Origin: Eledone cirrhosa
Lineage: Eukaryota
Assembly (NCBI GenBank): GCA_964016885.1
Contig: OZ024741.1
Location: forward strand, 187,426,001 to 187,490,000
Direction of reading: 5' to 3'
Length of the DNA: 64,000 bases
The notes under the pieces were generated by a model, which had not been told where the DNA came from, ran no database searches, and saw only the letters and a program-made list of their open reading frames with translations. The position numbers and the translations under genes were made by a program. Positions 36,001 to 57,884 of the stretch are shown here, piece by piece; within the stretch, counting starts at the first letter, position 1, and every line of letters begins with the position of its first letter.

Positions 36001-38691
36001 ATGGTACTATTGCTGTTGTTGATGTTACTGTTGCTGTTGTTGATGTTACTGTTGCTGTTGTTACTGTTGCTGTTGTTGATGTTGCTGTTGTTGTTGTTGA
36101 TGTTACTGTTGCTGTTGTTGATGTTACTGTTGCTGTTGTTACTGTTGCTGTTGTTGATGTTGCTGTTGTTGTTGTTGATGTTACTGTTGCTGTTGTTGAT
36201 GTTACTGTTGCTGTTGTTGATGTTACTGTTGCTGTTGTTACTGTTGCTGTTGTTGATGTTACTGTTGCTGTTGTTACTGTTGCCGTTGTTGATGTTACTG
36301 TTACTGTTGCTGTTGTTACTGTTGCTGTTGTTGTTGTTGATGTTGTTGTTGTTGATGTTACTGTTGCTGTTGTTGATGTTACTGTTGCTGTTGTTGATGT
36401 TACTGTTGCTGTTGTTGATGTTACTGTTGCTGTTGTTACTGTTGCTGTTGTTGATGTTGCTGTTGTTGTTGTTGATGTTACTGTTGCTGTTGTTGATGTT
36501 ACTGTTGCTGTTGTTACTGTTGCTGTTGTTGTTGTTGATGTTGTTGTTGTTGATGTTACTGTTGCTGTTGTTGATGTTACTGTTGCTGTTGTTGATGTTA
36601 CTGTTGCTGTTGTTACTGTTGCTGTTGTTGTTGTTGATGTTGTTGTTGTTGATGTTACTGTTACTGTTGTTGATGTTACTGTTACTGTTACTGTTGTTGT
36701 TGTTACTGTTACTGCTGCTGTTGTTGTTGTTATTGTTGCTGTTGTTGTTGTACTGTTGCTGTTGTGGATGTTACTGTTGCTGTTGTTGATGTTACTGTTG
36801 CTGTTGTTGATGTTACTGTTGCTGTTGTTACTGTTGCTGTTGTTGATGTTGCTGTTGTTGTTGTTGATGTTACTGTTGCTGTTGTTGATGTTACTGTTGC
36901 TGTTGTTACTGTTGCTGTTGTTGTTGTTGATGTTGTTGTTGTTGATGTTACTGTTGCTGTTGTTGATGTTACTGTTGCTGTTGTTGATGTTACTGTTGCT
37001 GTTGTTACTGTTGCTGTTGTTGATGTTGCTGTTGTTGTTGTTGATGTTACTGTTGCTGTTGTTGATGTTACTGTTGCTGTTGTTACTGTTGCTGTTGTTG
37101 ATGTTGCTGTTGTCGTTGTTGATGTTACTGTTGCTGTTGTTGATGTTACTGTTGCTGTTGTTGATGTTACTGTTGTTGATGTTACTGTTGATGTTGTTGT
37201 TGTTACTGTTACTGTTGTTGATGTTACTGTTGTTGTTGTTGATGTTACTGTTGTTGTTGTTGATGTTACTGTTGTGATGTTACTGTTGTTGTTGTTGATG
37301 TTACTGTTGTTGTTGTTACTGTTGTTGTTGTTGTTGTTGTTGTTACTGTTGTTGTTGTTGTTGTTGTTGTTGTTACTGTTGTTGATGTTGATGTTGTTGA
37401 TGTTACTGTTACTGTTGTTGTTGTTACTGTTACTGTTGTTGATGTTACTGTTGTTGTTGTTGATGTTACTGTTGTTGTTGTTGATGTTACTGTTGTTGTT
37501 GTTGATGTTACTGTTGCTGTTGTTGATGTTACTGTTACTGTTGTTGATGTTACTGTTACTGTTGTTGATGTTACTTTTGCTGTTGTTGATGTTACTGTTA
37601 CTGTTGTTGTTGTTACTGTTGCTGTTGTTGATGTTACTGTTGCTGTTGTTGATGTTACTGTTGCTGTTGTTGATGTTACTGTTGCTGTTGTTGATGTTAC
37701 TGTTGTTGATGTTACTGTTACTGTTGTTGATGTTACTGTTACTGTTGTTGATGTTACTGTTACTGTTGTTGATGTTACTGTTACTGTTGTTGATGTTACT
37801 TTTGCTGTTGTTGATGTTACTGTTACTGTTGTTGATGTTACTGTTGCTGTTGTTGATGTTACTGTTACTGTTGTTGATGTTACTGTTACTGTTGTTGATG
37901 TTACTGTTACTGTTGTTGATGTTACTGTTACTGTTGTTGATGTTACTTTTGCTGTTGTTGATGTTACTGTTACTGTTGTTGATGTTACTGTTGCTGTTGT
38001 TGATGTTACTGTTACTGTTGTTGATGTTACTGTTACTGTTGTTGATGTTACTGTTGCTGTTGTTGATGTTACTGTTACTGTTGTTGATGTTACTGTTACT
38101 GTTGTTGATGTTACTGTTACTGTTGTTGATGTTACTGTTGCTGTTGTTGATGTTACTGTTGCTGTTGTTGATGTTACTGTTGTTGATGTTACTTTTGCTG
38201 TTGTTGATGTTACTGTTACTGTTGTTGATGTTACTGTTACTGTTGTTGATGTTACTGTTACTGTTGTTGATGTTACTGTTGCTGTTGTTGATGTTACTGT
38301 TACTGTTGTTGATGTTACTGTTACTGTTGTTGATGTTACTGTTGCTGTTGTTGATGTTACTGTTGCTGTTGTTGATGTTACTGTTGTTGATGTTACTGTT
38401 GCTGTTGTTGATGTTACTGTTACTGTTGTTGATGTTACTGTTGCTGTTGTTGATGTTACTGTTGCTGTTGTTGATGTTACTGTTGTTGATGTTACTGTTG
38501 CTGTTGTTGATGTTACTGTTACTGTTGTTGATGTTACTGTTGCTGTTGTTGATGTTACTGTTGCTGTTGTTGATGTTACTGTTACTGTTGTTGACGTTAC
38601 TGTTGTTGTTGTTGATGTTACTGTTGATGTTGTTGATGTTACTATTGCTGTTGTTGATCTTACTGTTGCTGATGCTGATGTTACTGTTGTT
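1..38691. repeat. Giant cryptic trinucleotide satellite (GTT/ACT/GAT/GCT triplets; main units GATGTTACTGTT[A/G]CTGTTGTT, 21 bp, and GATGTTACTGTTGTT, 15 bp); continues off the left edge
   Basis: Direct reading: uninterrupted for 38.7 kb, nearly every triplet ends in T on +; ends at ...gctgatgctgatgttactgttgtt|ttttcttagg. Confidence 0.98.
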
Positions 38692-38780
38692 TTTTCTTAG
38701 GAGTAAAACCCCAAAGCCTCCCTCTGAATTCTACTTGTGAAAAGCAGAAAACTGCGAAACCGATAAAGAACCAAATAAAC
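38692..38780 (+). repeat. Unique ~90-bp tail of the satellite (contains AATAAA); homologous to the inverted copy at 41787-41876
   Basis: cttaggagtaaaaccccaaagcctcc...ccaaataaac is the near-exact reverse complement of 41787-41876. Confidence 0.93.
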
Positions 38781-38891
38781 TATTGTTTAAGCGTCAGTCA
38801 TACAAAAGTGAGTTACAAACGAAACGAAATTTAATTTCGTTTCGTTATTTGTTTTTATCGTCTCCGCTGAACCGGTACGTACTCACGCTCT

Positions 38892-38899
38892 ATGCAAAT
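38892..38899 (+). promoter_or_regulatory. Octamer motif ATGCAAAT in the HHR monomer (present in all three copies)
   Basis: Exact octamer sequence; function not shown. Confidence 0.35.
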
Positions 38900-38984
38900 T
38901 AGTCTGCCCACTACTAATTTTCATTATAAAAGCATATCACGATATGTGCTTTTACGATTCTCTAGAAAGGCCGGAAGATAGGTA

Positions 38985-39029
38985 AATATTGCTGATGAGA
39001 TGTAACAACATCGAAACTAGTCCAATATT
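38985..39029 (+). ncRNA. Minimal type I hammerhead ribozyme (predicted cleavage after GUC, C39022)
   Basis: AATATTG-CTGATGA-GATGT(aaca)ACATC-GAAA-CTAG-TC-CAATATT: intact core, 7-bp stem I, 5-bp stem II, palindromic ACUAGU stem III typical of PLE/retrozyme HHRs. Confidence 0.92.
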
Positions 39030-39242
39030 CCTGTCTGGCTTTCTGGAGAATAGAGGAAAGGTGTTTCCTCGAAAACCAGTATGACTCTAAAAACCGGTTT
39101 GTCTGTGTGTTTACATACAGAATAGCTGGACACTCACAGTAAAGTGTCCAGTGAAAAGCTCGGTACATCTACATATGTACACGTGTGTGTATTCATATGC
39201 ATACTAGTATTTCAGTATACATATGTGGATGTACATTTTTAA

Positions 39243-39244
<2 letters not shown>

Positions 39245-39294
<50 letters not shown>

Positions 39295-39378
39295 ATTGTA
39301 TCTTATATAAATATATCTATATATAATGTGGGTAATATTACAAGTATGAGAATAGCTTAATGTAAAATAATAGGATAC

Positions 39379-39450: not shown

Positions 39451-39453
<3 letters not shown>

Positions 39454-41660
39454 AGTTTTAAATTCTTCCGAGCCGTTCGGCGCATCGAGCAGTAAGTACT
39501 CGCCAACGGTCTCGATCAGCGGCAACTTTTTCGAGACTGCTAGGTGATGTTGACTGCCATCAGGTTCTTCCGGAACGTTCGTCGCCAGGTGATCCTTGGG
39601 CAACCCCGCCACCGTTTACCGCCAGGCGGAGTCCAGTTCATCGCTGTTTTTGAATGCCGTTCATTTGGCAGACGCAGAATATGGCCAGCCAGACGGCACC
39701 GATGCTCCGTGACCACTCTCTCTAGCGTCCACGACTCGGCACTCCGCAGGATCTGCTCGTTTCGCACTCCGTCGCGCCAGGACACACGAAGGATCTTTCG
39801 CAGGCATCGCTGGTGGAAAGCGTTCGGCCGTCTCTCTATTTTTGCCGTACTCTTCCAGGTCTCGCTCGCATAAAGCACTGTCGGCAGCACGATGCTCTTG
39901 TACAGGCGCAGCTTGGTCTTGGTGCTAATGTATGAAGACGACCAGACTGGGCACAGCCGCTGCAAAACTGCGGCTCCTTTGCCGATGCGACAGTTGATGT
40001 CGAGCTCCGCATCGCCGCTGCTTATCAGGATACTGCCCAGATAGGTGAACTGATCGACTTCCTCGAGGTCCTGTTGGTTGACTCTGAACACTGGACCTGT
40101 GTTGCTGGCCGTTCTCATGACCTTGGTCTTTTTGGTGTTGATTCTCAGGCCGATCTTTTCTGCACTCTCTTGTAGGGATGATGTTAGGGCCTGCAGATAT
40201 GCACTGCTTTCAGCGATCAAAGCGATGTCGTCGGCGAATGCCAGGTCCCTCAGCCTCGACTGCCCTCTCCATGGGATTCCTCGACCGGGTCCTTCATCCA
40301 TTCGCCTTTGTACGAAATCGGCTGCCAGCAGGAACAACAGTGGAGAGAGAATGCAACCCTGTCTGACTCCGGAGACAATGTCAGAGAACTCCGTCACACC
40401 GGACTCAGTCCGCACGCAGCAGCTGGAGTTTTCATACAGGGGCTTGAAAATGGCGATGAATCTTGCAGGAATGCCGTACAGTTGCGCAACATTCCACAGC
40501 GACTCCCGGTGTACACTATCGAATGTCTTCTGGAAATCAATAAAATTGAGCGCCAAAGGCTGTTGTAGCTCAACGCATTGTTCGAGAATGTTGCGTAGTG
40601 TAAAGATCTGTTCCGTGCAAGATCGATTTTTTCGGAAGCCGGCTTGTTCCTCCCAGATCTCAGAGTCGACAGCCTGCCGGAGTCGACGCAGCAGCACAGT
40701 GCAGAACGCCTTGCCTGGGACTGACAGCAATGTGATACTTCGCCAGTTGCTGCAATCTGCCAGGTTTCCCTTCTTCGGCAGTTTGACGATGACAAGGCGC
40801 TGCCACTCAAGGGGAACCCGACCAACTCTCCAGCAGTAGTTCATCAAGTCTGTCAACGCCGTTATCGTGCTCTCCTCACCGAATTTGAGCAGCTCAGCAG
40901 AGATCTCATCCAGTCCGCCTGCTTTGCCGTTCCTCAAGTGGCTAATCGCATCTCTCGTCTCTTGCTTGGTGATATGGTCCTTGCAGACTTTGAGTACCTC
41001 AGTGGTTGCTGGGGTCTCTGCGGTCATATCTATCAGGGCGACCAGATTTGGTTGGTTCAGCATCTCCCGGAAGTGCTCCATCCATCTCTGCTCCTGTTCC
41101 GCTCCAGTGGTCAATGTCTTGCCATTTTTTGTCTCTCACTGGCATGCTGGCACCGCTCGACATTCCTGTCAACTCCCTCACGATGCGGAACAGTGCTTTT
41201 GTATCGTTTCGACCAGCAGCTTCCTCTGCCTCAGCACCCTTTTTCTCCAGCCAGTGACGTTTGTCCAACCGGCAGCTTCGCTTTACCTGTCGGTCGATTT
41301 GGCAGAATCTCGCTCGACATTTGCCTTTTTCGTCTGTCAATCAGGTCCCACGTTGGTTCTTGGATCCATTTTCCCTCCTCGTTCCTCGACTTCGGCCAGT
41401 AGTTCCTTGTGCTGCCTCAGTCACTGCTGTTGTGAACATCGTCCATTGATCTTCCAGATCTGCAGCCTCACTCAACTGTTGGAATCGGTTGCGTAGCGCC
41501 AGTTGGTACAATCGCGCTTGACCGGTATACTTCAGCTACTCCACTGCATATGGCTTTCGTCTTTCCGGTCTTGTCCGTTTCTTCAGGCGCAGCTGAAGTT
41601 CCGCACACATTAGGTGGTGGTCTGAGCCCACGTCTCACCTCGGTACACTCTGACGTCACA
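39451..41660 (-). mobile_element. 5'-truncated RTE-clade non-LTR retrotransposon (LINE)
   Basis: Begins in the APE endonuclease C-terminus (DVRVYRG..DVGSDHHL, frameshifted), then an RTE linker (DRQVKRSCRLDKRHW), RT, and a C-terminus DRDRWRVL..RC; 3' end runs into (TA)n; GC-rich relative to flanks. Confidence 0.93.
39540..41114 (-). pseudogene. RTE reverse transcriptase domain (524-aa open segment of a disrupted ORF)
   Basis: Motifs KKGNLADCSNWRSITLL, EEQAGFRKNRSC, FIDFQKTFDSV, GVRQGCILSPLLF, FADD, FTYLGS; upstream frameshifts and a premature stop at 39540. Confidence 0.92.
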
Positions 41661-41876
41661 TATATATGAAAGTGAGCCTTTTTTTACAAAATGAAAAAAA
41701 AAAAGGTGTCCTAAACAAGTGAAAGAATAAGAAAAATGGATGAAATCGTAAATGCAACTGTAGTCTTTTTTTTATAAAAAATATATGTTTATTTGGTTTC
41801 TTTATCGGTTTCGCAGTTTTCTGCTTTTCACAAGTAGAATTCAGACGGAGGCTTTGGGGTTTTACTCGTAAGAAAA

Positions 41877-42077
41877 AACAACAGTAACATCAGCATCAGC
41901 AACAGTAAGATCAACAACAGCAATAGTAACATCAACAACAGCAACAGTAACATCAACAACAGTAACATCAACAACAGTAACAGTAACATCAACAACAGTA
42001 ACAGTAACATCAACAACAGCAACAGTAACGTCAACAACAGTAACATCAACAACAGTAACATCAACAACAGCAACAGT

Positions 42078-42120
<43 letters not shown>

Positions 42121-42542
42121 GTAACAGTAACATCAACAACAGTAACAGTAACAACAACAACAACAACAACAACAGTAACAACAACAACAACAACAACAAC
42201 AGTAACATCAACAACAGTAACAGTAACATCAACAACAGCAACAGTAACATCAACAACAGTAACATCAACAACAGTAACAGTAACAACAACAACAACAACA
42301 ACAACAGCAACAATAACAACAACAACAGTAACATCAACAACAGTAACAGTAACAACAACAACAACAGTAACAACATCAACGACAGTAACATCAACAAGAG
42401 CAACAGTAACAACAACAACAACAACAACAACAGTAACAACAACAACAACAGTAACATCAACAACAGCAACAGTAACAACAACAACAACAACAGTAACAGT
42501 AACAACAACAGTAACAGTAACAACAACAACAACAACAACAGT

Positions 42543-42576
<34 letters not shown>

Positions 42577-42907
42577 GTAACAACAACAACAACAACAGTA
42601 ACAACAACAACAGTAACATCAACAACAACAACAGTAACATCAACAACAGCAACAGTTTACATCAACAACAGTAACAATAATAACAGCAACAGTAACATCA
42701 ACAACAACAACAGTAACATCAACAACAACAACAGTAACATCAACAACAACAACAGTAACATCAACAACAACAACAGTAACATCAACAACAGTAACATCAA
42801 CAACAGTAACATCAACAACAGCAACAGTAACAACAACAGCAACAGTAACAACAACAATAGCAACAGTAACAACAACAATAGCAACAGTAACAACAACAAT
42901 AGCAACA
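41877..42907 (-). repeat. ~1-kb inverted copy of the giant satellite (AAC-rich on +)
   Basis: Same triplets and the identical diagnostic terminal variants (actattgct..gatcttact..gctgatgctgat) as 38640-38691. Confidence 0.95.
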
Positions 42908-43088
42908 ATACTAGTATGCATATGAATACACACACGTGTACATATGTAGATGTACCGAGTTTTTCACTGGACACTTTACTGTGAGTGTCCAGCTATTCTG
43001 TATGTAAACACACAGACAAACCGGTTTTTAGAGTCATACTGCTTTTCGAGGAAACACCTTTCCTCTATTCTCCAGAAAGCCAGACAGG

Positions 43089-43133
43089 AATATTGGACTA
43101 GTTTCGATGTTGTTACATCTCATCAGCCATATT
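43089..43133 (-). ncRNA. Hammerhead ribozyme copy 2 (one stem I mismatch)
   Basis: Reverse complement reads AATATGG-CTGATGA-GATGTaacaACATC-GAAA-CTAG-TC-CAATATT. Confidence 0.88.
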
Positions 43134-43258
43134 TACCTATCTTCCGGCCTTTCTAGAGAATCGTAAAAGCACATATCGTTATATGCTTTTTCTATGAAAA
43201 TTAGTAGTGGGCAGACTAATTTGCATAGAGCGTGAGTACGTACCGGTTCAGCGGAGAC

Positions 43259-43892
43259 TGAAAAACTCGGTACATCTACATATGTACACGTGTGTGTATT
43301 CATATGCATACTAGTATTTCAGTATACATATGTGGATGTACATTTTTAACTTAATTGTTTAAGCGTCAGTCATACAAAAGTGAGTTACAAACGAAACGAA
43401 ATTTAATTTCGTTTCGTTATTTGTTTTTATCGTCTCCGCTGAACCGGTACGTACTCACGCTCTATGCAAATTAGTCTGCCCACTACTAATTTTCATTATA
43501 AAAGCATATCACGATATGTGCTTTTACGATTCTCTAGAAAGGCCGGAAGATAGGTAAATATTGCTGATGAGATGTAACAACATCGAAACTAGTCCAATAT
43601 TCCTGTCTGGCTTTCTGGAGAATAGAGGAAAGGTGTTTCCTCGAAAACCAGTATGACTCTAAAAACCGGTTTGTCTGTGTGTTTACATACAGAATAGCTG
43701 GACACTCACAGTAAAGTGTCCAGTGAAAAACTCGGTACATCTACATATGTACACGTGTGTGTATTGATATGCATACTAGTATTTCAGTATACATATGTGG
43801 ATGTACATTTTTAACTTAATTGTTTAAGCGTCAGTCATACAAAAGTGAGTTACAAACGAAACGAAATTTAATTTCGTTTCGTTATTTGTTTT

Positions 43893-43895
<3 letters not shown>
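43259..43895 (+). repeat. Head-to-tail tandem of the HHR monomer, period 465 bp
   Basis: aagcgtcag at 43361 and 43826; aaaaactcggtac at 43261 and ~43726. Confidence 0.92.
43557..43601 (+). ncRNA. Hammerhead ribozyme copy 3
   Basis: Identical to 38985-39029. Confidence 0.92.
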
Positions 43896-43934
<39 letters not shown>

Positions 43935-43973
43935 CATATATATATACATATATATATATACATATATATATAC

Positions 43974-44050
<77 letters not shown>

Positions 44051-44051
44051 C

Positions 44052-44120
<69 letters not shown>
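43893..44120. repeat. (TA)n/(TACA) microsatellite
   Basis: Direct reading. Confidence 0.97.
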
Positions 44121-44127
<7 letters not shown>

Positions 44128-44589
44128 AAAATAGTTAGTTATGAACATTCCAATAACTTAAAGAAAAGACCTAGATACAAGATACGTTTCTCTATCTATT
44201 ACTAGTAATATTCCTAAACTATTTTTTAGGGCCTTAGATAAATGCTTCCATCCCTCGCATACCTATAGTAAGATCTTTAACAAACATACAATCAAATTCT
44301 CTTATTCCACCACTTCCAACATCTCTAACATTATCTCTAAACATAATAATAAAATATTAAATAATAAATTATATCCATCCAATACTGAGCGTCATAATAA
44401 TAGCAATAGTAAACCCGACGTCAATGTTAACTCTAGGCTAGATTCTGTAAATTTAAATACGACGTCAAACGTTCATAACACCAATCTAAATCAGGAAACT
44501 TTAGTACCTATCGTAAATAACTTCTCCAATCCTATTCCTTCTATAAATAATACTAGGTCACTTGTTAATAACTCTGGTAATTTCTCTAA

Positions 44590-45025
44590 TCGTAATTGTA
44601 ATTGGCCTGTTAGAACTAAATGTCCTCTTAGTAACCAATGTCTTGATAAAAACTTAGTGTATGAATCAAAGGTTATAACTAGTACTAATTCTTTTACCTA
44701 TTTTGGTTCCACTTCCACTTCCTTTAAAGCAAGATTTTATAATCACAAGTCGTCTTTTAAATACCAACTTAAAAGAACTAACACGGCACTCTCAGAACTC
44801 ATATGGTCCTTAAAAGACAAAAATATTAACTACAACATTTCTTGGATGAAGGTTTGCAACGCCTCTCCTTACCAGAATTCTTCCCTATCCAGAACATGTA
44901 ATCTCTGCCTAGCCGAGAAATTTACCATTATTTCTAATTTTAATTCTATAATAAATAGACGTACTGATTTATTTTCGCTCTGCTTGCATAAATCCCATAG
45001 AACTTTCCATAAAGTATACAGCTAA
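44590..45025 (+). pseudogene. PLE GIY-YIG endonuclease domain remnant
   Basis: NLVY...YFG, FKARFYNH, TALSELIWSLKD, CNLCLAEK motifs. Confidence 0.85.
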
Positions 45026-46012
45026 TATCTTACTACCTAATTAGTTTAAAATCTTCTTTTCTCAAACGCTTTTATATCTTTTACAAATATACCCATCTTT
45101 CTACCTTATTTCAGTATATTATATTATACAATTTACTCATTCTATGTCGTTAGCGTTCCCCTATTTTTCTTCTTTTTTATCCTTTTTTCTTTTTTAATTT
45201 CTAATCTTTAATCTGTAACTTTTACTTCTCAATTACTTCTTAATTCATATTATAACTCACTATAGCATTTTCCTTATATTCTTGGCCATACAAACTATAT
45301 TTTTAATATATACTAATATTACCATTAGTAAATTTTGTAAACATATATTTTTTTTGACGTTATATATTTTTTCTTCCTTAAATTTTCCTCTTTCTTCTCT
45401 CCTTCTGTGCTCGTATTAAACCTATTATTTACTTTTTCCTATTACAATACATAGAAAAAAACTTGGACCCTAACTAATTCCTCTAAGTTCATAATTCATT
45501 TAACCTTTTCTTCATTCACCTTATCTCCTTAATATTTTTTTATTTTAATAATACATATTAATAAACTCCTTTTCGCACATATTATTAAACCCTTCAATAT
45601 ATAAACCTTAAATAAATACTATTCTTAATTCTTTTTTCTTTAATCATAAACATCACCATTCATAAACCTCATTAACTTTTAATTTCAAATTTTTTTTAAA
45701 ATTATGTATTGTCTTACAACGGATTTTTTTTCTCTATGAGAGAGTGTTTCTCAGTATTAAAGGTTATCTATCTCTCTCTCACTAATTTTCTCCTCCTCTC
45801 TCATCCTTCCTTTTATGCTCCTCCTGCATCATCCTTTCCTTATTATTATATTTTTTATTATTATTATTTTCTTTCTTCCTCTTCCTTATCTTTTCCTTCC
45901 TCCTTCCTTCTTTTTTTCTCAATCCCATATATCCATCTTATTTTATTTTTCATATGTTGATTTAACACTTCACTGCTCGCAAGTGTTTTTTAAGCTTCAT
46001 ATCATGTCGCCC

Positions 46013-46083
46013 TATTTTATCTGATGAGAACGCAAATATCATCCCATGATGATATTTGTCTTTGAAATGCGCATAATAAAATA
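46013..46083 (+). ncRNA. Type I hammerhead ribozyme at the PLE 3' end (predicted cleavage after AUA, 46075)
   Basis: TATTTTAT-CTGATGA-[caaatatcatc/gatgatatttg stem II]-GAAA-TGCGCA-TA-ATAAAATA; perfect 8-bp stem I, palindromic stem III. Confidence 0.88.
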
Positions 46084-46113
46084 CATAGAACTCTTTTAAC
46101 CATCTTTTGATCT

Positions 46114-46366
<253 letters not shown>

Positions 46367-46497: not shown

Positions 46498-46791
46498 TGT
46501 TTTAAACAATCTTTGATTGTTATTTATAATGTATTTTGGCTCTGTAATATACTTGTTATTTTACATTGATCTATTCTCATACTTGTAATATTACCCACAT
46601 TATATATAGATAAATTCATATAAGATACAAATATATATATATATACATATATATATATTTGTATCTTATATAAATTTATCTATATATAATGTGGGTAATA
46701 TTACAAGTATGAGAATAGATCAATGTAAAATAACAAGTATATTACAGAGCCGAAATGCATTATAAATAACAATCAAAGAGTGTTTAAAACA
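46498..46791. repeat. ~290-bp palindrome: two tail-to-tail element ends around a (TA)n core
   Basis: 46498-46631 is the near-perfect reverse complement of 46658-46791. Confidence 0.9.
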
Positions 46792-47277
46792 TTTAATCAC
46801 TTAGGATCGTTTCATCCTAGCACAAGGCCGGGTTCATCCGAGTATATAATAAAGATTAAAGCACAAATATAATATCAGAATGTCATAAGAACATAAGAAC
46901 ATTAGGAGGATATATAATATTGGAATTAAGCATAAGTATCAACATTTAAATATGAAAAGATAGCAAAGGCGGAAGAATCTGAAAAATATGAGCATATAAA
47001 TTGCAATGAAATTAGGAGCAGCTAAAAGCATTAAAAATTTTAAAAAAATTTTAAATTAGAAAACCATGCTGCTATAGAGAAACATGCTGCTATAGAAAGG
47101 TTAAGATATATATGATAAGCTTTACAAAAATGTATAAAGTTAATAAGAGCAGGTGTGAGTTCAAATATAAATTTCAAAATATAAAAATACATCTCCAAAC
47201 GATATTTTTAATAATGAATATAAAATGTTCGACTGCGTAATTCAGTCATAAATATAAACTATTATTTTTCAAACTAT

Positions 47278-47459
47278 GGGCGGTGAATTGGCAGAATAGG
47301 TAGAGGGTTGGACATGCTCTCCTGCATAGTTACGTCCCTTTACGATCTGATTTCAAATCCCGCCAAGGTTAACTTTGCCTTTCATCCTTACGAGGTCGAT
47401 AAAATAAAGTACCAGTAATGCACTGGATAATTGCTGGCCTTGTGCCTAAAGTAGAAACA
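47278..47459 (+). mobile_element. tRNA-derived SINE with Nin/Deu-like central domain; 17-bp TSD attatttttcaaactat
   Basis: A-box-like tggcagaatagg, B-box-like ttcaaatccc, core tttgcctttcatccttacgaggtcgataaaataaagtaccag; TSD at 47261-47277 and 47460-47476. Confidence 0.88.
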
Positions 47460-47484
47460 ATTATTTTTCAAACTATTCAAATGT

Positions 47485-47672
47485 AATAATTGTTTCTACG
47501 TTTGGCACAAGGGCAGTAATTATCCCAGTGTATTACTGGTACTTTATTTTATCGACCCCGTAAGGATGAAAGGCAAAGTTAACCTCGGCGGGATTTGAAC
47601 TCAGAATGGCAAGGGCCGTAACTCTATGCGTCAAAGCATGGCGTTCCGACCCTCTACCGATACTGCGAATCC
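47485..47672 (-). mobile_element. Same SINE family, inverted
   Basis: Reverse complement of the 47278 copy. Confidence 0.88.
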
Positions 47673-48138
47673 AAATAATGCTGAATAAGTATACTCGGCA
47701 AAATAAAGATCAAATATAGGTTAAAGTATTATTATTATTAATCAAACCATTCAAATGAATTAATGTTGAGCAAATATAATCAGAAAAGTAAAAATTCAAT
47801 ATAGATTATCTGTCATCATCGGAAAAAACACCACATATTTGAATATTTTTGAAAATCCAGCTAGACCATAACCCACGAGAGTACTCGATACTTGAAGTAG
47901 TAGAGAGAGTAATATGAAAAGATTCAGGACCTCGAATATATATATATATATATATATATATTGTCTAACCTGATTAGGTTTTTCGTTGTTTTGGTATTGT
48001 ATGGCTGGGTTTTGCCTGCCGCAATTTTCAATTTGTCAAGCTGTCTAAACGTAATGCTATTACTCTGAGGTCCTACCCTTATTGGGTGCTTTGCTACTCA
48101 TTCCTAATTGTAGGTCACTATGCTCGGCCGCAGCCAAA

Positions 48139-48713: not shown

Positions 48714-48884
48714 TATATATAATATATAAGAACAAAAGATGGTTAAAAGAGTTCCATGTATTTTATTATGCGCATTTCAAAAACAAATATCATCATGCAA
48801 TAATATTTGTGTTTTCATCAGATAAAACAGGAGGACATGATATGAAGATTAAAAAACACTTGTGGATAGTGCAGTTTTAAATCA

Positions 48885-48887
<3 letters not shown>
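48714..48887 (-). mobile_element. Solo PLE terminal repeat of the 44121-46120 family, with HHR (48759-48829)
   Basis: Reverse complement of ~45955-46120; CTGATGA...GAAA-TGCGCA-TA-ATAAAATA retained. Confidence 0.85.
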
Positions 48888-48937
<50 letters not shown>

Positions 48938-50012: not shown

Positions 50013-50136
50013 ATAATAATAATTGTTTCTATATTTGGCACAAGGCCAGCAATTATCCCACTGTATTACTGGTACTTTATTTTATCGACCCCGTAAGGGT
50101 GAAAGGCAAAGTTAACCTTGGCGGGATTTGAACTCA
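50013..50136 (-). mobile_element. SINE (3' part)
   Basis: tttatcgaccccgtaagggtgaaaggcaaagttaaccttggcgggatttgaactca. Confidence 0.85.
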
Positions 50137-50212
50137 TCATAAGTTTCTCATTAATATAGTATAGTTTGTATTGTGTAACAGAAACTATTGTATGCATATT
50201 TATGCAACTAAA

Positions 50213-50284
<72 letters not shown>

Positions 50285-50416
50285 AGACAATTTACTGCTA
50301 CACAAAAAAAATCTGTAATTCGATATATTTTTCTTTTGTTGATAGTGATAGCACCCACCCTCCTGGTAAATACCATGGTTGACAACCTCTTTAAATAGAG
50401 CAGCCAGTACTTGGTT

Positions 50417-50509
50417 GGTTAACCTCGGCGGGATTTGAACTCAGAATGGCAAGGGCCGTAACTCTATGCATCAAAGCATGGCCTCCGACCCTCTACCGAT
50501 ACTGCCAAT
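50417..50509 (-). mobile_element. SINE (5' part)
   Basis: aacctcggcgggatttgaactcagaatggc...ctaccgatactgccaat. Confidence 0.82.
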
Positions 50510-50660
50510 AATAATGATGATGATGATGAGGGGGAGGAGGGGGACAACGATAATGGCATGATGACAATAGGTATGTTTCGGTCTTATTGGACCTCTTCAG
50601 TGAAATATAACATACTACAGATAGCCAAATTAGAAATAAGTACATGGTTGCATTGATTTA

Positions 50661-50841
50661 TAATAATTATTTCTACTTTTGGCACAAGGCCAGCAATTAT
50701 CTCAGTAGGTTACTGGTACTTTATTTTATCGACCCCATAAGGATGAAAGACAAAGTTAACCTCGGCGGGATTTGAACTCAGAATGGCAAGGGCCGTAACT
50801 CTATCCGTAACTCTATCCGACCCTCTACCGATACTGCCAAT
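50661..50841 (-). mobile_element. SINE, near full length
   Basis: Same family core and ends. Confidence 0.87.
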
Positions 50842-53194: not shown

Positions 53195-53260
53195 GATGTA
53201 TGTGTGGATGTATGTGGATGTATGTGGATGTGCATTTATAATATTTATATATATATATAT
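52984..53260. repeat. (CT)n, (TA)n, (TG)n and GGATGTATGT microsatellite cluster
   Basis: Direct reading. Confidence 0.93.
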
Positions 53261-53261
53261 A

Positions 53262-53465
53262 GGGGGTGGATTGGCAGCATCCGTAGTTGGTCGGACACCA
53301 TGTTTTGCAGCATAGAGTTTCGGCCCTTTACAATCTGAGTTCAAATCCCGCCGAGGTTAACTTTGCCTTTCATCCTTACGAGGTCAATAAAATAAAGTAC
53401 CAGTAATGCACTGGTACATGGTACACCAGTAATGCTGGCCTTGTGCCAAAAGTAGAAACAATTAC
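53262..53465 (+). mobile_element. SINE, full length
   Basis: ggattggcagc...gagttcaaatcccgccgaggttaactttgcctttcatcc...gtagaaacaatta. Confidence 0.87.
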
Positions 53466-53784
53466 TTAACTCGTCGAAACTTGATTTCAGACATGCATTG
53501 TGCTGCCGAGTGCTGCACGGCAGGAATGAAAATTAGTGCTGCAAAGAACTGTGGATGATTGCGCATGTGCATTCCACACACTCGGACATGTAAAGGAAAA
53601 ATGCATCGTTTTTGTTTTGTGTTGCATTTGAAAGATAGTCCTAATTGGGTAAAAATTAATACTTTTTTTTTTTTTTCACTTGTCTTCCTTTAACATTTAT
53701 ATATTTATACTGTGTTGTACCAGAGTTCTGTAATTCACATCGAGTATTACACATCTCGCAATGCTTCATATTACCATACTACTT

Positions 53785-53820
<36 letters not shown>

Positions 53821-54959
53821 AGGGATAACAAAATATCGTTGTAGGTAATCCAGTTAGAGGTTGTGAATACTTATTATTATGGATAGTTTTAGCGTACGGT
53901 GTTGTTTGACTCCACAAGAGGTTTACGTAGATGGCGAGTTTATGATTTCACTTGTATTCCTATTTAAGTTTATCTTGGAGTAATAAAATTGAAAAAGTGA
54001 AGAATAACATGGTCAACAGTACAAAAAAGGGGAATTTATTTACAGACTAACTATTATTTCTCTGATTAAGTTGTCTAAAAATTGCTGAACTCTAGAAGCA
54101 GTGCCACTCAATTTTAAATACGATGTTAGCTCAATCAGAACATCAGAGACTATTAAAAAAAATATATAACCGGCAAATCTACAAATTCAAATTACAGCAT
54201 CAATAATAACATTATAAAGATAGAGAGAGAAAAAAAGAAAGGGTGATAGATAAAGGAAAGAAAGAAAAAAAAGAAAAAGGAAAAGGAAAAAGGAAAAGGA
54301 AAAAGGAAAAGAAAAAGGAAAGGGAGAAATGAAAACAGAGAAAGATATATAGAGAGAAAAAGATATAGAGAATGGAGGAGAGAAAGCGGAGAGAAAAGGA
54401 TAAAGGAGAAATATATTAATGATATCAACAATAAATGAATACATGTTAATACATGAATAAATGTAAATAAATAAATAAATAAATAAACAAATTACATCGA
54501 GGATGATACAAAATGATACAAAATATGAAATATGAAAATATGAAAATAAATAAGCAAAAATGTGCGAAGAAATTTAAACATATTAAGATTATTGAAAGTG
54601 GTTAAAATATAGAGAGTCGAAAGTATAAATATGATAATGTTAAATATATTTATATGTGTATTGGTTATTTTAATAAATTAATTATATAATTAATTAATTA
54701 TTTGATTAATTAGTTGTATGTTATATTAGAAGTGAAAATGATATAAGATAAAATAAAATGCCAGAGATGAAATAAATTTAGGGAGAGAAATGGAGAGATA
54801 GAAAGTGAAAGATAGAGATACATAAAATATGAATGTAAATATAAGAGGTTTTCATGTTGGTTCATTGATAGATGATAACAATTATAACAATAATGATGAT
54901 GATGTGATATTATAATAGATCTAAGTGGTACAATTTGGGTATGGAATAGATAAGATGAA

Positions 54960-57525
54960 TTAAGCTGGTCTAAAGTTCTCAAATTTGGTGCAGAAAATAA
55001 TTTTTTCAATTTTACTGTTAAGTAGCATTTTGTTGTAATTTAAAATTGGGAAAAGTTCCATATTACAAAGACCACAGTGGGACATGCCAAATCGATAGGC
55101 CATTGCTGTTGATAGCTTCGTCCAGCTGATTTTATATTCCATGTTTGCATCTCTGAGTTGCCAGATTTTATTGGCGAGAGTTGTTGTATTTATGAGCTTC
55201 CTGTTATTCATAGAGTGTCTATGGACATACCACCTTTTCTTAAACTCCCCAGCTGTAGATCCTATGTAGTGCCATGTTAAGCTGCCTGAATTTATAGTAC
55301 ATAGGTATATTATATTTGACTCTAGGCATCCATTTTGTAATGGGCATTTGTCAGGTAGATGCCCGTTACATTTAGATGCCTTCCTATGTGCCGGTTTTTC
55401 TATATGGTTTTGTAAATTGTTATGTACGGGCTAGGAATTGGGTTTCTTGATGTATTGTGGTGATGTGTTCTGGCGTGTGTTTGGTTGTGATGATGTTATA
55501 TGCTTATGTTTTGTATTTAGTGTTATGGTACTTATTTGCGGGCTACTTGTATTATAAACTCTCTTATAGTTAATTTTATGCATGTGCGATTCTATGTTGT
55601 TGTAAGTGGAGTATGATAGTTTGATGGTTTTTCTATTAAAGATTTTATGATATTTATGAATTTTAGGGAAGTGTTTGTCAACTAATTTGAAGAAAGTGTA
55701 AGGTAGTTTTGTTTTTATAGAGGAGTTAAACACTGGATTGAACCATAAGTACTTTCTATCTCTGCATCTTCTATAGTTATTAGTGGTCTTTATATTAGTA
55801 TTCTGTTCAATTAATTCTCGTGCTTGTTGCCAATTTTTATGTTTAGTCCTAGATTTGTTGCTTCTATAGGTGTGGATAGTGCTATTAATATTAAGTGTGT
55901 TGTTATTTTTTTGTATCTGGTATGTATTTGAGTCTCTCTTTATGGCCTGCCTTAAGTAAAGCTATGTTATAGTAGTTAGCGTGTTCGTTAAAAATCACTA
56001 GATTAGAAGATAGGCGTGAGATTCTAAGGGATATGCTATGTGCTATGGAATTAATTATGAATCGAGGGTGATTAGAGTTATAATTAATGTAAGCTAAATT
56101 TTCATTATTTTTATGGAAGGGTTCTATTAGTCCTGGGTTTAGGTTAAGTGATACATCTAAGAAGTTAGCTTTTTTAGAGTTGAGTTCAAAAGTGATGTTA
56201 AGGCCCAATTTATTAAAGAATTTTCTAATCTTTTTCCGTAATCTTTCTAATGTTTGATTATTTAGGTTTTTAGCTAAAAGTAATGTATCGTCTCTATAAA
56301 TTCTTCCTTGTAGGTTATCAAATTTCTTATGCAAGATATGTGCTATATAAATTCCGACAATGTCCGTAACTTGGGCTGAATCATTTGATCCCATAGTTAT
56401 ATCGAAGTTATTCTGTTTATTTTTTCTTTCCCTGTAACTATTGTCGAATTTAATGATTGTTCTTTTAGCAGCTAGTATTATTTTAATTTCCTCTGGTGAA
56501 AGGTCAGAGTTTTTTTGTGCAAAGGATAGTGCCTTATTTAGGATTACAGGGGAAATAGAAGAGTAGTAGTCATTAATGTCAAATTGTATGAAGTCGGAAG
56601 ATTCTCTATTGTCTAATTTATTAAACCAATCTATTGCTTCCTTAGTGTTACCCCAGAGCTTGATTATTAGTTTTTCTTTAATTTGTGGTACTATTCTATT
56701 TAGTATAAACTTGCTAATTCTGCCTATATCTGATTTTGATAGACATATTAATCTAATAGTAGGGTCAGTTTCAAAGTTACATTTATGATCTTTCAGATTA
56801 AAAGTGGGTTTACAAGACGTTAGAGGTTCGGTTCTATCAGATATTTTAAGTTTTTTTACTATGTTAAGTCTTTCCTTATTAATGCTATTGAGTGTGGACT
56901 CTGTAGTTTTCTTGTATTTTTATGTAATTCCCGGTGTATAAAGTTGGTGTATATATTAAGGTTCATGGTGTATACGTTTGATGTTTTGTCTGCCTTTACT
57001 ATAATACCGTTGGTGTTACGTAATTTTTTTAGTAGTGCATTGATGTTATTTTGCAGTTTGTTATGATGTGTTCGTTTTTTTAAATTTAGTTTCCTTTATC
57101 ATGTTCATGAGGTCAAGTTCAAAGGCATCAAGTTGTGGATTGCTCAGTAGATTTTTGCAGGATCTAAACCCATATTTTTCACTGGTAGACTCATTATTTC
57201 TATCATTATTATTATTGGATTGGCAGTATCGGTGGAGGGTCGGACATAGTTACGTCCCTTTACGATCTGAGTTCAAATCCCGCCGAGGTTGACTTTGTCT
57301 TTCATCCTTACGGGGTCGATAAAATAAAGTAGCAGTAATGCACTGAGTAATTGCTGGCCTTGTGCCTAAAGTAGAAACAATTATTATGTCCTTTATCGTA
57401 ATGATATGCTTTCCATCTGATTCTACGGATAAAGTCATTAGTTCTTTGTATCATACCGAGCGTATATTCCTTATTTGTAGGTATTGGTATGTTTTTAAGG
57501 ACATTCCTATGTAGTGTCTTTCCAT
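54960..57525 (-). pseudogene. PLE ORF: N-terminus, RT, thumb, GIY-YIG endonuclease (frameshifts, stops, SINE insertion)
   Basis: SLK.IPIPTNKEY..FIRRIRW; MGSNDSAQVTDIVGIYI; RIYRDD; NFLDVSLNL; SNHP; DKHFPK.HKYHKIFNRKTIKLSYS; KCN..KCPLQNGCLESNIIY..HYIGST..FKKRW; CGLCNME. Confidence 0.9.
57217..57387 (+). mobile_element. SINE inserted into the PLE ORF
   Basis: Same SINE family; PLE-like sequence on both sides. Confidence 0.87.
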
Positions 57526-57884
57526 GTTAGTGCCGTGCGTTAAATTAATTGCTCAACCTAATGGGAGCTTGGTACAAGGGATAACAAAATATCGTTATAG
57601 GTGATCCAGTTAGAGTTTATGAATACTTCTTATTATGGATAGTTTTAGCGTACGGCGTTGTTTGACTCAACATGAGGTTTACGTAGATGGCGAATTTATG
57701 ATTTCACTTGTATTCCTATGTAAGTTTATCTTGGAGTAATAAAATTGAAAAAGTGAAGAATAACATGGTCAACAGTACAAAAAAAGGGGAATTTATTTAC
57801 AGTGTAACAATTGTTTCTCTGATTGAGTTGTCTAAAAATTGCTGAACACTAGAAGCAGTGCCATATATATATATATATATATAT

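Follow-up and report, generated by a model that had tools for sequence, protein, structure and literature searches.

A head-to-head inverted insertion of a hammerhead-bearing tandem repeat with satellite cargo in Eledone cirrhosa: a variant of the PLE insertion type

Described insertion types and the present locus

Insertions of endonuclease-bearing Penelope-like elements (PLEs) have been described as containing a head-to-head inverted, 5'-truncated copy, partial tandems and an extension at one end; they lie in simple AT-rich targets, have a palindrome in the repeat, and may include unrelated cargo moved with the repeats in trans (PMC3846280, PMC8557442; here and below, sources are cited from those parts of their text that were available). 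The formation of the tandem and inverted structures of PLEs is named as an open task in PMC8557442. Tandem hammerhead repeats are known as non-LTR retrozymes and have been proposed to be non-autonomous derivatives of PLEs; in animals, retrozymes are assumed to move through circles (PMC7229834; bioRxiv 10.64898/2026.07.22.740005). Inverted 5' parts are not mentioned in the available text of PMC7229834. The PLE protein of the anole nicks and extends both strands of AT-rich DNA and is predicted to be a dimer; two internal starts bound a genomic "tail", and uncleaved RNA is used, being the dominant substrate in vitro (PMC11167929).

The locus described here lies in a window of 64,000 nucleotides (the whole stretch of Eledone cirrhosa DNA that was analysed). 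The insertion that it contains shares with PLE insertions each of the features listed above. In contrast to the described examples, it has no ORF, its inverted half is longer than one unit, and its extension is 77-80 nt rather than 30-40 nt; its junction is neither a palindrome nor an overlap, its halves are contiguous in the unit, and its cargo is a satellite. Like non-LTR retrozymes, the repeat is a non-coding tandem with a GC content of 37%, one type I hammerhead per unit and a short palindromic stem III (PMC7229834; bioRxiv 10.64898/2026.07.22.740005). However, its 465-nt unit is slightly above the described range of 150-450 bp (PMC7229834), and the insertion holds non-identical units together with a satellite, so that it is not a rolling copy of one circle.

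Two further systems are similar in part. As in PAc (anole Poseidon), two ends bound a stem-loop, the target is AT-rich, the template would be an uncleaved hammerhead RNA, and both strands would be extended; the sites of PAc, however, lie approximately 30-40 nt apart in an ORF, and its available description holds no two-start account of an inverted copy (PMC11167929). As in L1 twin priming, the outer end of the inverted 5' segment runs into the start of the direct segment, and short homologies are present (PMC2912911). Unlike L1 insertions, the locus has no poly(A) (none was found at 41787 or 41661) and no readable target-site duplication, both of its ends are recurrent sites of the family, and the likely enzyme is a PLE GIY-YIG/RT. 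The original prediction had placed the locus in the 5'-inversion layout of twin priming; the inverted segment and the contiguity of the halves bear this out, whereas the layout as a whole is that of PLEs rather than of L1. We were unable to find an account of end-to-end continuity, of a two-start model or of satellite cargo in PLE or retrozyme insertions in the open-access main texts covered. The insertion is a variant of the known PLE insertion type that carries a testable mechanistic hint.

Architecture of the insertion and its surroundings

The features of the window are listed in Table 1. The repeat unit is a hammerhead-bearing monomer of 465 nt, the positions of which (m1-m465) were set to 43354-43818 by self-alignment of the window. 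It occurs in tandem both in the window and in the public sequencing runs X1, X4 and X5, and is non-coding (GC 0.37; longest Met-started frames of 29 and 68 amino acids).

Table 1. Features of the window, with positions counted from its first base (m, position in the monomer)
Feature	Position	Strand	Basis
21-nt TG-rich satellite, the same as in the insertion, at least 38.7 kb, running past the left edge of the window; part of the sister locus	1-38688	+	Window sequence
3' end of the sister locus: tail, monomer m1-462 with third hammerhead, then (TA)n	38689-39243	+	Self-alignment, HH9
Unrelated LINE, 5'-truncated and frameshifted, flanked by TA units and lying between the two loci; 531-aa open RT stretch	39452-41658	-	RVT_1, E 1.9e-32
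AT-rich stretch, TA units beside the tail; flank or element extension	41661-41786	.	No second copy in the window
Tail, also present in the left locus with 3 of 93 nt differing; the insertion probably has its 3' end here	41787-41878	-	Its end is the position preceding m1 in the left locus
Cargo: 1028 nt of TG-rich satellite, 21-nt (6/15/21-nt) unit	41879-42906	-	Few bases common to the monomer at the join
Non-inverted partial monomer B (m79-430) with second hammerhead	42907-43258	-	Self-alignment, Rfam HH9, motif
Head-to-head inversion junction m79/m371	43258-43259	.	Exact microhomology 0; 6-nt G+T tract in common, 2-3 nt off register
Inverted 5' part (A): m371-465, full monomer m1-465, m1-77; outer end is the recurrent m77/(TA)n end	43259-43895	+	Self-alignment, loose ends in runs
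29-nt palindrome (m37-65), stem-loop between the two recurrent ends	43390-43418	.	Also present at 43855-43883 and 38818-38846
Type I hammerhead in monomer A2, with its cleavage triplet ending at 43594	43557-43601	+	Rfam HH9, 33.7 bits (gathering score 52)
(TA)n target tract adjoining the inverted end	43896-44125	.	Window sequence
5'-truncated PLE-like endonuclease fragment, 287 aa open	44162-45025	+	Directly behind the (TA)n tract
Nearly full-length decayed PLE-like element; frame from ~57500 to 54960	53817-57863	-	291-nt direct repeats at 53817-54106 and 57573-57863 (94%)

The plus-strand segment (A) consists of m371-465 (43259-43353), m1-465 (43354-43818; A2) and m1-77 (43819-43895), followed by (TA)n. 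The minus-strand segment reads m79-m430 from 43258 to 42907 and continues into approximately 1 kb of satellite and then the tail. When the plus-strand segment is flipped, the only base lost between the halves is m78 (the c at 38859 and 43431); since the final 2-3 bases of the plus-strand segment may derive from the TA target, the gap ranges from 1 to 4 nt. The head-to-head segments and one-base gap of the original prediction were reproduced by these coordinates, as was the spacing of the two hammerheads, the predicted cleavage sites of which (triplets ending at 43594 on the plus and 43096 on the minus strand) are 465 nt apart in the flipped molecule. Its single molecule of about 2.2 kb stands with respect to end-to-end continuity; the length is at least 2.11 kb and at most 2.24 kb, depending on whether 41661-41786 is flank or element. 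The tail identity between the right and left loci stops at 41787, and self-alignment gave no second copy of 41661-41786 in the window beyond one weak 24-nt match; this stretch may be flank. The target is a TA tract, with at most a few TA units on both sides.

The third predicted cleavage triplet, in the monomer of the left locus, ends at 39022. The three hammerheads score 30.2-33.7 bits against Rfam HH9 (E values of 1e-5 to 1e-4), below the gathering score of 52, and a search at Rfam gathering scores gave no matches in the 64 kb. All three copies have the conserved core, stems I and II of 7 and 5 bp, and a minimal stem III with a palindromic loop; the minus-strand copy, in B, has a mismatch at m209, in the second pair of stem I. 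In motifs of the minimal-stem-III type, cleavage is poor in monomers and improves in dimers (PMC4209133). The exact 27-nt hammerhead core was found at 0 loci in metagenome contigs and at 0 in viral contigs.

The left locus ends at m462, immediately before (TA)n. Because its satellite array ends in the same tail and hammerhead monomer, this array of at least 38.7 kb may have been seeded by a retrozyme and expanded in place. Long-range internal duplications, with offsets of approximately 8.5 and 9.9 kb, are present in the satellite at 1-38688. GCTATTG units number 3 in the satellite of the insertion and 0 in the left array. Neither the satellite nor the tail was retained as a coding sequence: the satellite has 360-1357 stops per frame, and the tail, considered as the 3' end of a PLE ORF, has an LN-x3-E spacing resembling the C-terminus of P0001-P0004, but with an E value of 3.3.

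The LINE that separates the two loci is presumably of RTE type. Two decayed PLE-like frames (44162-45025 and approximately 54960-57500) match the proteins P0001-P0005 with E values down to 4e-74 and have motifs that we take to be typical of PLEs; Pfam gave these remnants no name, and they are called PLE-like by these matches and motifs. No link between these frames and the hammerhead repeat was found. The element at 53817-57863 has TA tracts at both outer ends, and a motif scan of it gave no hammerhead. Elsewhere in the window, a second hammerhead-like repeat, in which stem II is long, is present at 45952-46128 (plus strand) and 48714-48890 (minus strand), the two copies being 88% alike and each lying beside a TA tract, and a third hammerhead-like core of different sequence lies at approximately 50560-50610 (minus strand). 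A near-perfect palindrome at 46498-46791 is centred on TA and has arms of 145 nt (97%); 131 nt of it recur at 39245-39370, inside the TA tract behind the left monomer. A SINE-like repeat of approximately 190 nt is found at 47275-47684, 50015-50841, 53258-53467 and 57202-57387, with some copies in inverted pairs.

Recurrent ends, junction and monomer alleles

Among 24 listed public runs, none of RNA, four (X1, X4, X5 and X22; X4 gave one contig and X5 two) were aligned to the left copy at 38690-39243 only. The monomer is very abundant in organism A, with 1059 contigs in X1. Where the tail meets the satellite, summed depth is lower than that of the monomer by three to four orders (depth being no copy number), and the rare satellite-linked subfamily occurs twice within 2.5 kb in the window. 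Over 38728-38781, summed X1 depth is approximately 2000 on the monomer side of the tail as compared with 35-130 on the satellite side; a different, commoner element may therefore also have this monomer-side stretch in front of m1. Tandem or circular joins from m462 to m1 are present in X1, X4 and X5, representing three organisms, and joins from the tail to m1 were found at 38781 in 14 raw reads with 10 different starts.

Among the three listed positions of 3' loose ends in X1, m77 followed by TA repeats is represented by 12 contigs, m459 by 2 and m143 by 1 (98 other loose ends across the four runs lie outside this listed set). Ends at m77 and at m459-462 recur. The tail of the insertion stops at the position followed by m1 in the left locus, the left copy itself stops at m462, and m77 recurs in X1; both outer ends of the insertion are therefore recurrent ends of the family, and the m77 end and the boundary before m1 flank the 29-nt hairpin m37-65. 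The m77 site has 3 nt of homology to TA, as compared with 21 sites in the monomer with at least 3 nt and 9 sites with 4 nt. That m77 leads the listed 3' loose ends even though 9 sites match TA better suggests that the family starts here at a fixed site and not by chance annealing. The 12 contigs may, however, be either outer ends of inverted copies or ordinary 3' ends.

These counts do not support, as worded, the claim that the TA-rich target had primed internally at ttttat. An insertion of the L1 type, in which TA microhomology let the second target end pair with some internal position on one and the same RNA and no start was programmed, is improbable in our estimation. The homology of 2-3 nt at the outer junction and the offset homology at the inversion junction are features of twin priming (PMC2912911) that such an event would explain; yet with so many sites of equal or better homology, m77 still leads the listed loose ends, TA homology is slight or absent at the m462 and tail ends, and poly(A) is missing.

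Small numbers of joints provide a second view of the inner breakpoint. X22 contains an opposite-strand joint of m69 with m298 (5 reads, 3 starts) and a joint of m402 to m70 (2 reads, of a kind not stated), and the lone X4 contig opens at m78, the runs giving no orientation for any of these. The small joint counts come from X22, a raw-read library in which read ends are massed on TTAA sites in a manner resembling restriction artefacts; the massed ends at 38782 and 38831-38833 fall on such sites, have loose parts with approximately 0.35 agreement, and were set aside as probable library artefacts. When the m69/m298 joint is read head to head, 6 of 7 bases are homologous in the T-tract m69-75, a match equalled by 5 of the 465 positions; the off-register 6-nt homology at the junction of the window is matched by 13 of 465. 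Starts of direct halves seem to cluster near m69-79. If the second breakpoint were uniformly random, it would fall within 1 nt of m78 in 3/465 (0.6%) of cases and within 3 nt in 1.5%; as the two breakpoints both seem to be recurrent ones, such a null is too generous.

The junction of the window itself (38860 to 39152 on the left-copy reference) is absent among the joints listed for the runs, and no colinear donor of the insertion was seen. An origin by fold-back on either half, as proposed for the palindromic junctions of Adineta, was rejected: the plus-strand segment continues via m431-465 and not via the satellite, and the minus-strand segment differs from the plus-strand monomer at 7 of 352 sites. 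We consider a misassembly or a chimeric fold-back read to be very improbable. Structures of this kind do trouble assemblies (PMC8557442), and a junction-spanning read is lacking among the listed joints; against this, the same 7 differences and the continuation of each half into a context of its own are unlike a fold-back read, and the ends match family ends in independent runs.

An event at the DNA level, either the inversion in place of a colinear insertion or a rearrangement or conversion via the left copy, is slightly less remote and also quite improbable. In-place inversion would yield an identical geometry, and two findings would suit it: the monomer A2 differs from the left monomer at only 2 positions (99.6% alike, 4.6 kb apart), and a rare satellite-linked subfamily is present twice within 2.5 kb. 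Such an event would, however, need one break exactly at the 5' edge of the element, no TA unit being present at the junction, and the other at a recurrent end. The original prediction had named pre-existing inverted repeats at the breakpoints as a sign of inversion in DNA, and none is present; the longest shared word is 7 nt, of TA-type sequence.

The alleles of the monomers bear on how many templates were used. A2 and B differ at 7 of 352 sites. At m144-146, B carries the allele of 313-315 of 316 X22 reads, and at m157 that of 322 of 323; the B alleles at these sites also make up all of the X1 depth, whereas A2 and the left copy share the rare allele. As A2 and B differ at inherited sites, they must already have been distinct when the insertion took place, which also excludes that one circle was copied in a rolling manner. 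The near-identity of A2 to the neighbouring left copy leaves room for a local origin, and the alleles leave the choice between one and two RNAs undecided.

Formation of the insertion

Our tentative preference, held with a confidence just short of even, is that a non-autonomous PLE derivative (a repeat of the non-LTR-retrozyme type) was inserted from one linear, uncleaved RNA with two fixed starts. A PLE protein acting in trans would insert the repeat into the (TA)n tract. The template would be a linear, uncleaved tandem RNA comprising one or more monomers, a partial monomer, the satellite and the tail, followed by another monomer or at least its beginning, and both nicked target strands would be extended on this RNA at two fixed starts flanking the m37-65 hairpin. 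The first cDNA would start just before m1, behind the tail, and run for 1.47 kb via the tail, the satellite and m430-m79 to stop at the second start site; the second would start at m77 and run for 637 nt to m371. The 3' ends of the two cDNAs would then be joined, probably aided by the T-tract m69-76.

Several observations can be set beside this model. The two decayed PLE-like frames in the window indicate that PLE enzymes exist in the source genome. Homology of the repeat to an autonomous PLE was not detected (best E value of 0.38 against five PLE-like proteins, and none to the two PLE remnants of the window). The interval of 77-80 nt between the two ends is twice the 30-40-nt PLE tail (PMC8557442). 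The unprocessed template that had been proposed fits the biochemistry of PLEs (PMC11167929); the accompanying claim of a single RNA is left undecided as against two.

Two RNAs, one per strand, form the main competing account, which we judge to be somewhat unlikely. A would derive from a tandem-monomer RNA and B from a satellite-carrying RNA, the two being joined head to head, and their adjacency in the unit would be a by-product: m77 is a fixed start, and cDNAs would stop at m66-79, at the foot of a (protein-bound) hairpin or at the 5' end of an RNA. The rare alleles of A2 are found in the left copy but not in B; the similarity of A2 to the left monomer and the 3 differences between the tails over 93 sites would also suit a separate origin of A. 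The m69 and m70 joints and the contig start at m78 show a cluster of starts. In Adineta Pen2a, moreover, the direct half holds the whole upstream pLTR, with a 15-bp overlap with the inverted pLTR, and had not stopped at the upstream start (PMC3846280). On the other hand, the cDNA of A would have crossed the same hairpin twice and m66-79 once with no stop, and the stop in the window is 1 nt from the start site, nearer than in the m69 and m70 joints. The satellite would still go through RNA in this case, as it would with one RNA and two starts and with L1-type twin priming.

One uncleaved RNA with two fixed starts, the reading that we prefer, suggests a wider scheme, which we offer as a speculation that is rather unlikely to hold in full. 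Each nicked strand would have its own programmed start on a single tandem RNA, and the downstream cDNA would be blocked at the upstream start; this would give PLE-type insertions their inverted 5' copy and their tail at one end. In this lineage, the retrozyme would take this route as a linear, uncleaved multimer rather than a circle and would seed the satellite at new TA sites, where arrays exceeding 38 kb could grow. With its high copy number, inverted copies and two apparently fixed ends, the family offers a direct genomic test, since the start of the direct half should track the end of the inverted half if one RNA was used, but not if there were two. As a single example of a known layout, with a mechanism that we infer, the locus ties the spread of a large satellite to a retrozyme.
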